Shown piece after piece: positions 2 through 22,822 of a DNA stretch of 26,464 bases; position 1 is the stretch's first letter, and every line of letters begins with the position of its first letter. Origin of the DNA: a virus (lineage: Duplodnaviria > Caudoviricetes). The DNA lies in IMG/VR virus record IMGVR_UViG_3300011438_000035, positions 1 to 26,464 of that record; one strand, given 5' to 3'. A program made the position numbers and the translations under genes. The notes under the pieces were generated by a model. That model did no database searches. It was not told the origin of the DNA and saw nothing but the letters and a program-made list of their open reading frames with translations.

Positions 2-781
2 GCGCTCGCCGACGCGCAACGCACCGCCATCGGTGATGAAGCCGCGACGCAGGCAATGGCTATCTCCGTTATAGGTAACGCGGGGGCCAGTGCGTTCTCC
101 TGCGTTAACCAATACATCGAAGGCGTGCGACGGCTGGCTGGTAAGACCGTTACGGTATCATTCTGGGCATACGCCACGACCGGATCGCCTAAGATTGGCG
201 TCGCCGCCACGCAACAGTTTGGCTCGGGCGGATCACCATCGGCTGATGTGCTGATCAATGGCACGGCGACACCGGCACTCACGAACAGTCCGGTGCGCTA
301 CTCAATCACATTCACATATCCAAGTGTGGCGGGTAAGACGCTGGGCACCAACGGCAATGACAGCAGCCGCCTCGGGTTGTTCTTCTCGTGTGGTGCGACC
401 TACAACACGTTCGCTGGCGGCATCGGCGTGCAGAGCGCGACGTTCGTGTTGTGGGGCGTGCAACTTGAGGTCGGTTCCGTGGCGACACCATTGGAGAAGC
501 CTGATCCACGTTATGATTTGAGCAACTGTCAGCGGTTCTTCCATGTGGGTTGGCTACAACAAGGCGGATATAATGTTAATGCTGGCCCTGGACTTTCTGC
601 GTATACACTCCCGGTGACTATGCACCATGCGCCGACGCTTGTTCCGTACTTTACTTTCGCCGTCTGCACGCTGAACAATTTCAGCGCCTCTGGCTCTGGT
701 AATCTTGGGCTCACGGTAACAGCGACAGCGACCGGAACATATCTTTGCTATGGCAACTTCACAGCATCCGCTGATCTCTAA
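2..781 (+). CDS. Tail fibre / receptor-binding protein, C-terminal part (5' end lies outside the window)
   Basis: Frame is open from position 2. Motifs 'QYIEGVRRLAGKTVTVSFWA' and 'GVQLEVGSVATPLE...DLSNCQRFF' are typical of phage tail fibres with a carbohydrate-binding-like domain. Confidence 0.8.
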   Translation, partial: ALADAQRTAIGDEAATQAMAISVIGNAGASAFSCVNQYIEGVRRLAGKTVTVSFWAYATTGSPKIGVAATQQFGSGGSPSADVLINGTATPALTNSPVRYSITFTYPSVAGKTLGTNGNDSSRLGLFFSCGATYNTFAGGIGVQSATFVLWGVQLEVGSVATPLEKPDPRYDLSNCQRFFHVGWLQQGGYNVNAGPGLSAYTLPVTMHHAPTLVPYFTFAVCTLNNFSASGSGNLGLTVTATATGTYLCYGNFTASADL

Positions 782-792
782 GGAGCACCGAC

Positions 793-972
793 ATGGCTTC
801 CGAATATCAACTGATCGCACCACTCCCCGGCTTGGAAACGCAAACCGTATTGAGGGTTCGAGATCAGGCGTTCATTCCGTTTGACGAAGCAAACCGGGAC
901 TATCAGGAATATCTGGAATGGATGGCTAAAGGCAACAAAGCGGATGATCCCGCGCCCGGTCCAACAGCCTAA
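793..972 (+). CDS. Small tail fibre assembly/chaperone-like protein (59 aa; absent from the ORF track)
   Basis: AAGGAG RBS at 780-785, ATG at 793. Translates MASEYQLIAPLPGLETQTVLRVRDQAFIPFDEANRDYQEYLEWMAKGN. The 'IPxDxxNxDYQxYLxW...GN' motif is commonly found after tail fibre genes. Confidence 0.8.
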   Translation: MASEYQLIAPLPGLETQTVLRVRDQAFIPFDEANRDYQEYLEWMAKGNKADDPAPGPTA

Positions 973-1025
973 TGAAAATTCCTCTGACCGGAGGCGCCTA
1001 TCAGGCCAGAAGCGTCGTCGCCTCT
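972..1025 (+). pseudogene. Orphaned original 5' end of the gp10-like gene (the ORF runs on in unrelated sequence to 1169)
   Basis: TAATG coupling to the upstream gene. MKIPLTGGAYQARSVVAS matches LTGGAYQARSVIAS at 1749-1790 in 13 of 14 residues. Confidence 0.85.
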
Positions 1026-1031
1026 GTAATG

Positions 1032-1060
1032 TTGCTTAAACCTTTTCGATGTCCTATGAC
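1032..1060 (+). promoter_or_regulatory. Putative sigma70-type promoter giving a leaderless endonuclease mRNA
   Basis: TTGCTT (1032-1037), 17 bp spacer, TATGAC (1055-1060). ATG follows 5 nt later at 1066 with no Shine-Dalgarno. Confidence 0.5.
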
Positions 1061-1065
1061 GCGGC

Positions 1066-1734
1066 ATGTCACATGCAAGCGATCTTACGGGTCTACGGTT
1101 CGGAAAATGGACTGTGGTCGGTCTCAATTCCATAGTTCGGCGCAACAGAATGTGGAATTGCCGTTGTGATTGTGGGAAAGAACGATCTGTTTTCGGGGGG
1201 TCGCTCAAAGGGGGTGTATCAACGTCTTGTGGTTGTAATATTGGTCTGTCCGCGAAGCAACGCTTCACCAAACACGGCCAATCCGGGTCGAGGTTTTATA
1301 TGATCTGGGGAACAATGCAGCAGCGATGCCTTAATCCGAAAAGCAAAGCATACCACCGTTACGGAGGGCGTGGGATAACCATATGCGACAGGTGGCTGGA
1401 TTTTACTCGGTTCCAGGAAGATATGGAGCCAACCTGGAAAGACGGATTATCCATAGAACGAATAGACGTGAACGGAAATTATGAACCGTCTAATTGCAAA
1501 TGGATACCGGTAGGGGATCAATGGAAAAATAAGCGGCCGTGGAAGGAATGGCGGAAGCCGGAAATGCTTGTAACCAACACATCTGGAATTAAGGGGGTTT
1601 ATTGGTCCAAAAGGGACCGTCGTTGGTGCGCGGCAATCAGCATCAAAAACAAGACACATTATCTCGGGTCATTCGTGTCCAAGGATGACGCCGCCGAAGC
1701 TTATCGTTCCGCCGCCATCAAGAGGACGTCATAG
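1066..1734 (+). CDS. Free-standing HNH-like / AP2-domain homing endonuclease
   Basis: 'DLTGLRFGKWTV..WNCRCDCG', 'MQQRCLNP..YHRYGGRGITIC', 'SIERIDVNGNYEPSNCKW', and a C-terminal AP2 domain 'NTSGIKGVYW..RWCAAI..HYLGSF..DAAEAY'. Visibly AT-richer than its neighbours. Confidence 0.88.
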   Translation: MSHASDLTGLRFGKWTVVGLNSIVRRNRMWNCRCDCGKERSVFGGSLKGGVSTSCGCNIGLSAKQRFTKHGQSGSRFYMIWGTMQQRCLNPKSKAYHRYGGRGITICDRWLDFTRFQEDMEPTWKDGLSIERIDVNGNYEPSNCKWIPVGDQWKNKRPWKEWRKPEMLVTNTSGIKGVYWSKRDRRWCAAISIKNKTHYLGSFVSKDDAAEAYRSAAIKRTS

Positions 1735-3218
1735 TGGTGCGACAGGTTCTCACGGGGGGCGCGTATCAAGCCAGGAGCGTGATCGCCAGCGCCCAAAGGA
1801 TGGTGAATCTTTATTCTGAACCCGTTCCGGGAAATCAAACGGAGCCTGCCCCCGCAACCTGTTACCCGACGCCTGGTCTCACGCTGTTCGGCACGATCGG
1901 CAGCGGCCCGATACGCGGACTTTACCGGGCCGCGGACAATGAGACGTTCTGTGTGTCTGGGACAGGTTTCTACCGGTTGAACCTGCCGGCCGGGACCGGC
2001 GCCCTTATCGGCACCATAGACGCCGCGTCGCCCCCCTACAAGCCGGTTGGCATGGTCGATAACGGGCTGGAAGTGGTCATCGTCGATGGTGGTCCGACAG
2101 GGTGGAGTTACAACCTTTCATCCACGGTATTTGGCCCGATCACGGACCCGAACTTCCAGGGCTCCGTGAGAGCGGATTACCTCGACGGGTATTTTTTGTT
2201 CGCGCACCCAGGCAGCATCATATCGCCGCCCATATTCTATTCCTCCGACTTTCTCGCCCTGACGTTCGATCCGTTATGGGTCGCCAACAAAATCGGGTTC
2301 AGCGATCTGCTGCGGACGGTCGTCGTGACACGGCGCACGATCTGGCTCATCGGTGATCGCACGACGGAGATATGGTCGAACACCGGCAAGTCGGATTTCC
2401 CGTTCGAGGCGCAGCCGGACGTGTTCATCGATCACGGTATCGTCGCGGTTTACTCGGTCGCCACTTTCGATAACGGCGTCTTCTGGCTGACGGCGGACAG
2501 AACCGGCCAGGGCATCGTGCTGCAAGGCGCGGGGTATCAAACGAAGCGGATTTCGACCTACGCCATCGAGGCGGAAATCGCCGGTTATACCGAAATCAAA
2601 GACGCCATCGGCTACTGTGTCCAGTATCTCGGCCATACGATGTATGTCCTCACGTTCCCCACCGCCGATAAGACCTGGGTCTACGACATAACCACCGGGC
2701 ACTGGCACGAGTGGCTGTGGACCGATCCCGCGACGGGACTGAATCACAGGCATCGCTCAAATTGCTTTTGCGCGATCGAGGGCGGCACAGCTAACGGCAT
2801 GTTGCTTGTCGGAGACTGGCAGAACGGCAACGTCTATAAACTCGACCAAAACGCGTTCACCGACAACGGCGCCGCGATCCACCGCGTTCGCTCGTTCCCG
2901 CATATGCTTCAGGACGGGCGGCGCGTGTTCTACAATGAGTTCCTCGCCGACATGGAGACCGGCACGGCAACGGGCGACACCATTGTCTTGTTGCGATGGT
3001 CGAACGACCGTGGCCATACGTGGGGCAATCCCGTCCCGCAGTCGCTGAACACGACGGGCACGCTGACATCGATGCAGTGGCAGCGGCTCGGACTGGCGCG
3101 CGACAGGGTGTGGGAGTTGTCGTGGACGGCGCAGGGCATGGTCGCGTTGCAGGGCGCGTGGATCGACGCGGTGGTGGGCGACGCGCCCACGGCCGCCCCG
3201 GCAACGGCGGACGCCTGA
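1734..3218 (+). CDS. P22 gp10-like packaged-DNA stabilisation / tail hub protein
   Basis: AGAGGA RBS before GTG. Beta-rich 494 aa with 'VNLYSE', 'PTPGL', 'RISTYAIE', 'YVLTFPTADKTWVYDITTGHWHE' and 'LRWSNDRGHTWGN...WQRLGLARDRV'. Confidence 0.88.
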   Translation: MVRQVLTGGAYQARSVIASAQRMVNLYSEPVPGNQTEPAPATCYPTPGLTLFGTIGSGPIRGLYRAADNETFCVSGTGFYRLNLPAGTGALIGTIDAASPPYKPVGMVDNGLEVVIVDGGPTGWSYNLSSTVFGPITDPNFQGSVRADYLDGYFLFAHPGSIISPPIFYSSDFLALTFDPLWVANKIGFSDLLRTVVVTRRTIWLIGDRTTEIWSNTGKSDFPFEAQPDVFIDHGIVAVYSVATFDNGVFWLTADRTGQGIVLQGAGYQTKRISTYAIEAEIAGYTEIKDAIGYCVQYLGHTMYVLTFPTADKTWVYDITTGHWHEWLWTDPATGLNHRHRSNCFCAIEGGTANGMLLVGDWQNGNVYKLDQNAFTDNGAAIHRVRSFPHMLQDGRRVFYNEFLADMETGTATGDTIVLLRWSNDRGHTWGNPVPQSLNTTGTLTSMQWQRLGLARDRVWELSWTAQGMVALQGAWIDAVVGDAPTAAPATADA

Positions 3219-3219
3219 C

Positions 3220-3501
3220 ATGGCGGGAGAACTCCACGTCCCCCTGCCATCGACCATGTCGCCGTTGGTCGATGGCAACGGCAATGTCACGATGGCGTGG
3301 CGCGCCTGGTTCGCCATGGTTGACAAACGCCTCGGCCCGTTCGGCGGGCTCATGTTGCCATCCGGCGTGACCTGGACCAGCGGCACGGGCGCGCCGATCG
3401 CGGCGCAGCCTGTTGGTTCGTTGTATTCTCAGGAGGACGGCACGGTGGGCTTTACAATTTATGTCAGTCAGGGCGGCGGCGTGTGGACGGTGGTGGGATG
3501 A
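3220..3501 (+). CDS. Short tail protein (tail-needle/gp26 position)
   Basis: N-terminal 'PLVDGNGNVTMAWRAWF' and C-terminal 'GTGAP...PVGSLYSQEDG...TIYV' resemble phage tail proteins. Lies directly after the gp10-like gene. Confidence 0.6.
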   Translation: MAGELHVPLPSTMSPLVDGNGNVTMAWRAWFAMVDKRLGPFGGLMLPSGVTWTSGTGAPIAAQPVGSLYSQEDGTVGFTIYVSQGGGVWTVVG

Positions 3502-13309: not shown

Positions 13310-14181
13310 CATGTCGTCACCGGCTGCCGGAAGGGGTCGGATGACGGATCGGCGAACACGCCATCGTTCGGCGCGGTCGTGGCCTCGGCGGTGCGTGCGA
13401 TGGCTTCCATGATGAGGTCTTGCAGCCGGTCTTTGTGCGCGCCACGTGCCCGATCCTGCGCCGCCTGAACGGATGGGCGGGCGAGTATTTCATCCACTTC
13501 GTCGGCGCTCTCGCACGCGGCCAGTTCAGCGGCCAGTGCGGCGATCCACTCGTCCGGCGTTTGTTTTGGCTTCGGCTGCTCGGCCGCCGGTTCGGGCGCG
13601 GCGGCTGGTGCGGGGTCGGCATCCAGCGTCGTGCCCCGGAACGTGTCGCGGACGGTCTGGGCGTCGAACTCCTCCGGCGAGTAAACGCCCAACATGACTT
13701 CCGGCGCGTGGCGGCGTGCCCAAACGCGAGTTCCGGCGTAGCAAAGCTGCTGCTCGGGTTGCTTGACCCACATGCCGTTCGTGGTTTTCGCTTCCTTCAG
13801 CCAGAGGGTTATTTCCCTCGGCTTTGTTTCGCCCTTGATGGTGCCCCGCACCGTGACCTTCAAATCGGGACCCGCGCCGGAGTATTCGTATTCCAACCGG
13901 GCAGCCATGATCCCGCTACCGTTGAGGGCGGCGGCGACAAGTTTGCCCTCAAAATTTAGCTTGCCGTTGATGACCGAAGTGCAGGCGGCGACGGCGAACG
14001 GTGACATTCCCCACCGCATCGCCTGCTCCACGATGAGCAGACAGTCGCCGGGATTTTTCCGCAGATGCTCTGGAATGCCGATCTTCCCAAGCGACATCAT
14101 CTCGGCGAGCCGGATGGCGCTCTCCATGTTCGTCGGCATCAGCACGTTGGCGCTTCCGCCGGCAGGGACGATCGCGTTCAT
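13309..14181 (-). CDS. recT: RecT-family single-strand annealing protein
   Basis: 'IPEHLRKNPGDCLLIVEQAMRWGMSPFAVA...INGKLNFEGKLV' and 'WVKQPEQQLCY...WARRHAPEVMLGVYSPEE'. Confidence 0.82.
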   Translation of the reverse strand: MNAIVPAGGSANVLMPTNMESAIRLAEMMSLGKIGIPEHLRKNPGDCLLIVEQAMRWGMSPFAVAACTSVINGKLNFEGKLVAAALNGSGIMAARLEYEYSGAGPDLKVTVRGTIKGETKPREITLWLKEAKTTNGMWVKQPEQQLCYAGTRVWARRHAPEVMLGVYSPEEFDAQTVRDTFRGTTLDADPAPAAAPEPAAEQPKPKQTPDEWIAALAAELAACESADEVDEILARPSVQAAQDRARGAHKDRLQDLIMEAIARTAEATTAPNDGVFADPSSDPFRQPVTT

Positions 14182-14636
14182 GCTTCTCTCCTAATATTAC
14201 GGATTGTCTTGACTGAAACGCCAAACCACGCGGCGACGGCCCAGGCCGGGGTTTCATCCTCGCGGATTTTCACACGCCACTCGGGCGGGATTACGTAGGC
14301 TTTTCCGTGCCGTCCCTTGCTGTTCATGTCCCGCATATTCGCGGCTTGCGTGCCGATAAACAGATGATCCGGGTTGACGCAAAGCGTTACATCGCAGGAA
14401 TGACAAACCACGTCACCCGGTTTTAGATCGTGTCCTTGCGCGATCATCATCGCCCGGTGAGCCAGTTCTGGCTTGCCTCCAGGCAGAAACGCCATGCCAT
14501 AATCTCGGGCATAAAGGCCACCTGTCCAGAGCCAGCAGCCGCTCCAAGGAACAGGAATTGTGCGCTCCATTAGTCGTTCGAGTAGCGGTCTACCCTTCCG
14601 CGCCCGCAAGCCGGAGAAACCCTTGGCGGCGTCCAT
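14178..14636 (-). CDS. Free-standing HNH endonuclease
   Basis: 'GCWLWTG..YG..AHR..VVCHSCDVTLCVNPDHL..GTQAANMRDM..KGR' plus a C-terminal HTH-like segment. Confidence 0.9.
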   Translation of the reverse strand: MDAAKGFSGLRARKGRPLLERLMERTIPVPWSGCWLWTGGLYARDYGMAFLPGGKPELAHRAMMIAQGHDLKPGDVVCHSCDVTLCVNPDHLFIGTQAANMRDMNSKGRHGKAYVIPPEWRVKIREDETPAWAVAAWFGVSVKTIRNIRREA

Positions 14637-21988: not shown

Positions 21989-22253
21989 CCGCACCAACCA
22001 ACCATCGCTGTTCCCCGAACGGCCCCAGACGCCCTCCAGGCCGCGCCACGTCGTGCCACAGGCGCGCTCCTCGCACGTCGCCACCGTCCGCACGCCCTCG
22101 GGCGTCGTCTACGACTTCCACGACTGGACGCCCCTCGGCCCGCCGCTGCCGTTCGAGAGCATCCCGCCAGAGATCAGGCTCCCAGGCGAACCCGGATACA
22201 TCGAGATGGACAAGTTCATGCGCCCCGCCGGCGTCAAGGGGGGGGCGGGATGA
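21981..22253 (+). CDS. Hypothetical Pro-rich protein (90 aa)
   Basis: GGAG RBS, ATG 21981, overlaps both neighbours. N-terminal QPSLF. Confidence 0.6.
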   Translation: MADRTNQPSLFPERPQTPSRPRHVVPQARSSHVATVRTPSGVVYDFHDWTPLGPPLPFESIPPEIRLPGEPGYIEMDKFMRPAGVKGGAG

Positions 22254-22822
22254 AACTCCCCGGTCCTGTCCCCCGCATGTCGCCAACGATGCTCGAACGC
22301 ATCCGTCCCGTCCTGGATGAACCGTGCTCGGGATATCGGTGCGGAGGCGGCGAGGCACAATTCACCCGGCGCCGGATCGGCGCCGCGGTTACGATCCACT
22401 TACAATGTCAATCATGCGGCAAGTCGCTGACCGGCGCGTTGAGGCGGGCCGAGTTCTATACCTGGCAGGACTTCCCCGCGTGGGACGAAGAGATCCGCAC
22501 TACATGGGACGAGGGGCAACGCGCACAACATATCGAATACGCTCAAGACATCAACGCGGCGAGGGAGAGGCGGGCCGCTGACGCAGCGGTGCGCCGCGCG
22601 GAATACAGCCGATGGCTCCTGACATCCCCCGAGTGGCGCACCCTCCGTGACCGCGTCTGGCGCCGCGCCGGAGGCACCTGCGAAGCCTGCCTCGCCAATC
22701 GCGCCGGAGACATCCACCACGTCACCTACGCCCTCGGCCGCCTCCCACCAGCCTGGGAACTCCGCGCCGTTTGCCGACAGTGTCACGACCGTCTGCACGA
22801 CTGGACCGGCGGCGAGGAATGA
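22250..22822 (+). CDS. HNH endonuclease-like protein with an N-terminal zinc ribbon
   Basis: 'SPEWRTLRDRVWRRAGGTCEAC....DIHHVTY......ELRAVCRQCHDRLH'. Confidence 0.82.
   Translation: MKLPGPVPRMSPTMLERIRPVLDEPCSGYRCGGGEAQFTRRRIGAAVTIHLQCQSCGKSLTGALRRAEFYTWQDFPAWDEEIRTTWDEGQRAQHIEYAQDINAARERRAADAAVRRAEYSRWLLTSPEWRTLRDRVWRRAGGTCEACLANRAGDIHHVTYALGRLPPAWELRAVCRQCHDRLHDWTGGEE

Follow-up and report, generated by a model that had tools for sequence, protein, structure and literature searches.

How does a phage keep a virion gene working when the start of that gene is found twice, once on either side of an endonuclease gene? The question arises from a stretch of viral DNA of 26,464 nucleotides (the whole of which is referred to here as the window), a 26-kb piece of a temperate podophage-like genome with integrase, RecT, repressor and primase genes as well as tail fibre, connector and ejection genes. 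The gene concerned (1734-3218) encodes a head closure protein of type Hc3 (phrog_578, E 5e-96), and its product matches stabilisation proteins in the PDB, P22 gp10 among them at E 0.003. It sits between adaptor/fibre genes and ejection genes, with a DNA-ejection gene downstream, as expected for the P22 gp10-like Hc3 family. In P22, gp10 is essential. Relatives of the gene in GenBank phages are all distant (52 records, <60%). The locus consists of the following parts, the truncated first copy of the gene start being called the stub:

793..972, + strand: 59-aa gene, 3' of the tail-fibre gene, with a stop overlapping the ATG of the stub; a non-conserved upstream neighbour
972..1026, + strand: the stub, 18 codons from the native start of the gp10-like gene, left stranded; matches a cassette-free contig at 34/38 nt and has family-typical codons
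1027..1065, + strand: 39-nt spacer which arrived with the nuclease
1066..1734, + strand: 222-aa HNH-family endonuclease gene with a Cys-rich N-terminal module, a His-less ERID-x4-Y-x3-NC core and a C-terminal AP2 domain
1720..1726, + strand: SD-like AAGAGGA in the 3' end of the nuclease gene, 7 nt from GTG 1734 and 10 nt from GTG 1737
1734..1862, + strand: 5' patch of foreign origin that replaces the start of the gp10-like gene, ~43 codons; 54.5% nt identity to the cassette-free allele L335
1863..3218, + strand: recipient-type body of the P22-gp10-like head-closure/tail-hub gene; ~90% nt identity to L335, phrog_578, PDB relatives

The reading frame of the stub continues as junk to 1169. No promoter for the nuclease was found at the threshold of the promoter scan; by eye, a weak -35/-10-like pair below that threshold can be seen in the spacer at 1032-1060, and its predicted start site would land on the nuclease ATG, which has no SD, making a leaderless transcript possible. 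A -10-like hexamer at 4/6 was not found in the window's spacer, while six of seven other spacers have one and that of L462 does not, under a loose rule with no chance control.

The initial annotation had described the two copies (984-1025 and 1749-1790) as sharing 13 of 14 residues and differing at 11 of 42 nt, with eight codons changed synonymously and one V/I exchange. This description is accurate, and the copies are the sole pair of 14-residue stretches with at least 13 identities in a six-frame translation of the whole window. The TAATG coupling of copy 1 to the upstream gene (969-974) was likewise confirmed, as were the ribosome-binding site that copy 2 has of its own in the 3' end of the endonuclease gene (AAGAGGA at 1720-1726) and the assignment of the gene between the copies to the HNH-AP2 type (phrog_374, E 1e-71; AP2 at residues 173-219, under the Pfam cut-off). 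The HNH stop overlaps the GTG start of the gp10-like gene (TAGTG, 1732-1736). The difference of 11 in 42 nt had been taken as a sign of recoding, but it is ordinary: among 374 pairs of cassette-free alleles sharing at least 13 of the 14 residues, a pair differs at a median of 10 nt, and at 11 or more in 41% of cases, a background which rules out copy-to-copy divergence as proof of recoding. In three other phages with a stub, the copies differ at 16-20 nt. An assembly artefact is ruled out as well, as contigs from three other studies (X2, X3, X4) bridge both junctions, the one from stub to nuclease by X2 764-1333 and X4 950-1163 and the one from nuclease to copy 2 by X2 1548-1774 and X3 1652-1846. 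Positions 300-3400 lie within one contig of run X1, possibly the source run.

Which of the two copies is native can be read from relatives without the cassette. L335, a cassette-free and collinear allele, aligns gap-free to the window's gp10-like gene, with 53-60% nt identity over 1749-1868 and about 87-90.2% from 1863 on; same-residue codons differ in 24/29 cases in the patch versus 99/431 in the body, a contrast that is inflated because L335 itself is AT-shifted in this segment. Since the start of L335 is AT-shifted, a second source of the empty allele was checked. A cassette-free contig of 266 nt from run X1 matches the stub at 34/38 nt, continues with 75 other letters in exact register and rejoins the window's body at 1862 (40/41 nt), and an X1 contig of equal length and depth matches L335 at 114/123 nt up to the end point of the stub. 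Run X5, from a separate study, holds a similar empty allele and, according to loose ends inspected by eye, also a window-type patch. Because of the identity step against L335 and the cassette-free contig that runs from stub to body, the stub can be assigned to the recipient's own start and 1734-~1862 to a foreign source, and the gp10-like gene is a chimera in which a foreign patch of ~43 codons precedes a body of recipient type. The replaced piece hence does not end at 1790, as had been proposed, but runs to about 1862. Copy 1 is thus native and copy 2 foreign. The earlier view that this is not a target-site duplication stands, and so does the expectation that cassette-free relatives read through contiguously (L335, the 266-nt X1 contig and the X5 allele). 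Occupied and empty alleles coexist at the locus, with 106 distinct cassette-free starts versus 7 nuclease-adjacent ones. The diverged tract of gp10 beside the nuclease, 1734-~1862 in the window, is similar in L140, L137, L004 and L194 and absent in L141.

In the window's nuclease, the canonical HNH His is replaced by Arg, and Arg131, Tyr139, Asn143 and Asn155 are invariant in 55/55 aligned cores. PacI is described as using a loop Tyr in place of His in the part of PMC5714182 available to us. A model of the core (pLDDT 85) gave PacI as top match in a wide structural search (VIA), weakly so (Z 5.7, rmsd 4.1, 81 aligned) and tied with an unrelated chain at 5.5, followed lower down by Gme HNH (3.0) and I-PpoI (2.3). 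Foldseek gave no match with the core model, PDB sequence searches with the nuclease returned AP2 alone or nothing, and a full-length model matched AP2 domains only, weakly. Nuclease activity is plausible. The nuclease gene lies outside any intron or intein, with no Rfam match, its own start and stop and no common splice register. Two further HNH genes are present in the window at 14178-14636 (- strand) and 22250-22822 (+ strand), one between RecT and Gp157 and the other 5' of the primase; duplicated flanks were looked for at both and none were found.

For a wider view, 459 loci were classified, leaving out the window's own records and with some of the underlying scans partial, followed by 80 nuclease loci from a partial scan; three scans covered 7-46 of 64 parts. 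At least 12 distinct phages carry the nuclease directly in front of gp10, four with a stub (the window, L140, L194, L004) and eight without (L137, L141, L365, L462, L463, L464, L528, L155). L140 has an intact 222-aa HNH-AP2 protein, 42% identical to that of the window; the L194 nuclease is broken in 5' repeats; and L004, three records of one phage, retains a 60-aa nuclease remnant. The prediction that other carriers share the junction was borne out for L140, which breaks at the same nucleotide, but not for L004 and L194, which break 4-6 codons further on. Nor is the duplication a fixed feature of the cassette, as first thought: because 8/12 carriers have none, it is best seen as a by-product in some contexts. 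The context that differs is the upstream neighbour. A gp4-like adaptor lies upstream in 7/8 stub-less carriers, L155 being the exception (the seven calls come from tblastn in three cases, PHROG in one and ORF inspection in three, that of L528 from C-terminal residues only), and none was found in the four stub carriers, with only 200 nt of flank in L194. A stub thus occurs in 4/4 carriers in which no gp4-like gene was found and in 0/7 with one (Fisher p 0.01; hand-classified, with lineages that are not independent).

A search with the nuclease only placed its top three matches next to gp10 and 4/80 overall (partial scan, the query alignment consisting of gp10-adjacent proteins in 4/5); since the three best matches adjoin gp10, this nuclease subfamily is tied to the gp10 gene. 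In the tree, which is poorly resolved, the gp10-adjacent nucleases do not form one clade: the window's groups with L194, L365, L462 and L463 (92/96, not starred) and that of L140 with the stub-less L137 (96/90). Common descent of the window and L140 elements as the cause of their identical junction is unsupported by this tree. Several carriers and relatives show peculiarities of their own. In L004 (3859-4041), L194, L462 and L463, the first 20-45 nt of gp10 are dual coding, the nuclease ORF running over them in another frame. In L139 and L155, a fibre-like gene 5' of gp10 ends in a gp10-like C-terminal domain; the L155 nuclease is on the opposite strand and L139 has none there. L401 (1453-2010, minus strand as read) holds a gp10 relative with a poly-proline and Ig-like insertion and a stop before the body.

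Codon usage at the gp10 start was compared on 184 full starts, which reduce to 125 distinct ones and, after 12 with short flanks were dropped, to 106 without the cassette and 7 adjacent to the nuclease. When the GC3 of the body is subtracted from that of the first 26 codons, the mean is -0.26 in nuclease-adjacent versus -0.04 in cassette-free starts (p 0.006); the window's own drop over these codons is merely 0.08, with its dip at codons 16-45. When codon typicality was scored per position against 76 GC-rich empty alleles, the codons of copy 2 proved atypical (0-5th percentile) in 4/4 stub carriers, as did the start in L137, and L462 and L463 fell at the 3rd and 7th percentile, while five of the 12 nuclease-adjacent starts are unremarkable (L141, L365, L464, L528, L155). 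All 12 stubs scored are typical (34th-97th percentile). A carrier and its nearest empty allele have only 11-15% of 5' codons in common (window/L335, L140/L040, L137/L353), below every one of 101 empty-empty pairs, which share at least 24% and are not independent of each other; no such drop was found in L141. An AT shift in the segment is seen as well in ten of the 106 cassette-free alleles, including L335; these may be escape alleles or former carriers. The strongly AT-shifted cassette-free starts over the first 26 codons are L058, L095, L089, L003, L042, L052 and L335.

The reading that we favour, with a probability of roughly 0.7, is that of a free-standing homing endonuclease which would target the conserved first ~25 codons of the gp10-like gene and move together with the diverged 5' piece of that gene lying next to it, which would itself escape cutting. 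During mixed infection or contact with a prophage, a cassette-free allele would be cut or nicked by the nuclease near codons 17-24; recombination of the right end with donor sequence in the body of gp10, at a crossover near 1862, would then copy in patch and nuclease. Where the gp4-like adaptor upstream is shared, the left end could also recombine by homology, leaving no duplicate, and where a variable tail-fibre gene lies upstream, as in the window, it would join illegitimately at the break and strand the old start, which might later act as a short left homology arm. Translation of gp10 would start at GTG 1734/1737, with no splicing, and depend either on the SD of the gene itself or on coupling to the stop of the nuclease. 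What we infer from this pattern is cutting specific to the empty allele, co-conversion of the patch and an illegitimate join on the left, and the patch at 1734-~1862 is likely cleavage-resistant. One-sided illegitimate repair with junctions of this kind is described for homing of T4 td in the accessible part of PMC2988022, and the RecT encoded by the phage counts in favour of a homing reading. Points against it are the Arg in place of the catalytic His together with the weak PacI match, the nuclease-free stubs described below, the five unremarkable nuclease-adjacent starts, the AT-shifted empty alleles, the window's small GC3 drop and the scatter of gp10-adjacent nucleases in the tree.

The same arrangement might instead belong to a WHO-type element from the outset, with the stub as standing left homology arm, two-sided recombination and one fixed junction. 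In its favour, the break falls at one and the same nucleotide in the window and in L140, TAGTG coupling is found in both, and their codons agree in 56% of cases in the patch against 43% in the body; the stubs are recipient-like, and the model for WHO elements of yeast, as far as given in the accessible text of PMC7282813, does use a duplicated fragment as homology arm. Yet the arm would be merely ~55 nt at ~80% identity, the junctions of L004 and L194 lie 4-6 codons further on, and the window and L140 nucleases are only 42% identical and group apart, L140 with the stub-less L137 (96/90). We regard such an origin as somewhat unlikely; for later rounds, it is compatible with the homing reading preferred here. 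A nuclease residing in a self-splicing intron, or bypassed in translation with the stub joined to the body, is extremely improbable. Stub and copy 2 do share a frame in the window (765 nt), and codon 3 would allow one U^/G^ join, but no Rfam match appears at E up to 5 over 700-2200, just 39 nt are non-coding, in the three other stub carriers the spacing is indivisible by 3, no splice register is common to the carriers, and copy 2 has its own start and SD. A group I intron with an encoded HNH, or bypass, was rejected on the Rfam result and the splice register, in agreement with the initial view of a locus that works without splicing.

Relatives in which the duplication is independent of the endonuclease gene had been named at the outset as evidence that would count against the proposal, and in part this is what is seen: nuclease-bearing stubs occur in four phages, but there are also nine distinct nuclease-free gp10 stubs (L037, L049, L050, L090, L109, L188, L244, L316, L566). 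These end at codons 15-22 of the profile, the same codons as the nuclease-bearing ones, and are mostly joined directly 5' of the RBS of a tail-fibre-type gene, the downstream connector being a distant gp10 or of another family. No nuclease was found after the stub in six longer records; the flanks of four others are too short to exclude one. They may be scars left when the same cut was repaired with another phage as template, remnants of carriers that later exchanged both nuclease and gp10, or the outcome of an ordinary exchange hot spot. The last possibility leads to module shuffling independent of the nuclease, in which a donor block with nuclease and gp10 start was joined just inside a recipient gp10 at a hot spot before that gene and the nuclease is a passenger. 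Besides the nuclease-free stubs themselves, it would account for loci where fibre genes and a gp10 of 30-35% identity come after the stub (G002, G003, G005, G007) or where a different virion protein family does (G004, with one further record leading into an ORF that begins like that of G004), and for the outcome of a search that took the upstream tail gene instead of the stub as its key, in which 38 distinct loci lie behind one common tail gene with many different downstream genes. Left unexplained are a foreign piece of merely ~43 codons that is silently diverged, the closest nuclease relatives at the same gene, and stub ends confined to codons 15-22 of ~480, including those of five stubs among the 38 loci of the stub-blind search, where no recognisable shorter or much longer stubs were seen. 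Such shuffling is considered quite unlikely as the origin of the locus.

A further reading takes the first ~25 codons of gp10 to be a nuclease-attacked arms-race site across this group of soil phages, at which breaks would drive exchange of tail modules, the AT-shifted empty alleles being escape variants. Repair from a carrier would then give stub, nuclease and patch, and repair from an unrelated phage a nuclease-free stub with new fibre genes and a different connector. We put this forward tentatively and hold it to be rather doubtful as a whole; if true, mosaicism of tails and host range would be driven directly by a selfish nuclease. The same logic recurs at other genes in three of the 80 nuclease loci. 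L478 (2417-3888) has a 9-codon stub of a Dam-like DNA methyltransferase gene, a spacer with a TATAAT box, a related nuclease and a silently diverged full start; in L490 (2375-3289), the nuclease continues in frame from the former gene start, and a full 78-aa gene begins anew downstream; and L524 (2380-3395) is the mirror case, an integrase whose 3' end has been replaced, with a diverged and GC-rich version of its last ~25 residues standing as an orphan behind the nuclease. The locus illustrates how a virion gene can house an intron-less nuclease in its coding start and still survive, and annotators should take stubs of this kind and out-of-pattern gene starts as genuine. At this locus, an empty allele, the patch boundaries and a candidate cut window of ~30 nt are now defined.

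Integrative elements that rebuild their target gene had been proposed as the analogue, but phage intronless homing, WHO elements and fungal mORFs are closer. A search of the literature, with most subscription journals outside its coverage, found no account of a phage nuclease with a stranded gene start; the accessible parts of PMC10448857, PMC2248197 and PMC8393795 cover HNH-AP2 genes of phages and, in a fungus, an N-terminal duplication, without describing the layout of the window in a phage. Intronless homing by T4 SegF, SegG and MobE likewise involves an intron-free nuclease beside a conserved target gene, a self allele that differs by substitutions and co-converted flanks, as far as the reviews PMC2988022 and PMC13565253 could be consulted, and the eight stub-less gp10 carriers fit it directly. 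The presumed target here lies within ~130 nt of the nuclease, compared with hundreds or thousands of bp in the intronless homing systems covered by the accessible text, and the old gene start is stranded upstream in four phages, while the available parts of both reviews mention no such duplicate. HNH genes inside coding sequence without an intron are described in the portion of PMC2988022 at hand for Aeh1 mobE in nrdA and T4 mobA in gene 60, where the protein is split into two chains, unlike the single full-length chain rebuilt here.

The WHO element at FBA1 of yeast, in the sections available of PMC7282813 and bioRxiv 10.64898/2026.08.13.744650, is also splicing-free and combines a nuclease with a resistant piece of an essential host gene, the resistance being putative in the window; it too yields a chimeric gene, and the displaced piece stays as a fragment beside the nuclease, mirrored here to the 5' end. 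From the same sections, WHO uses a LAGLIDADG plus zinc finger protein (HO-related), replaces that gene's 3' half in diploid yeast, forms stacked clusters and has had its cleavage shown, whereas a His-less HNH plus AP2 protein, 43 replaced 5' codons, a phage host, no clusters seen and putative cleavage characterise the present case. The window element works like WHO but, as an HNH-AP2 gene beside a phage connector gene, is not a WHO member. Hybrids in fungal mitochondria (Allomyces atp6; Glomus atp6, atp9, cox2 and nad3) similarly carry an endonuclease ORF that arrived together with the end of a gene from elsewhere, and the native end so displaced is closer to an ORF-less relative than to the inserted one; in contrast to the locus studied here, these mORFs are C-terminal rather than N-terminal, of the LAGLIDADG or GIY-YIG type and organellar, as far as described in the accessible part of PMC3630166. 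Intronless homing, as in the stub-less carriers, and gene-end replacement of the WHO/mORF type, as in those with a stub, appear as two outcomes of one element, set by upstream homology.
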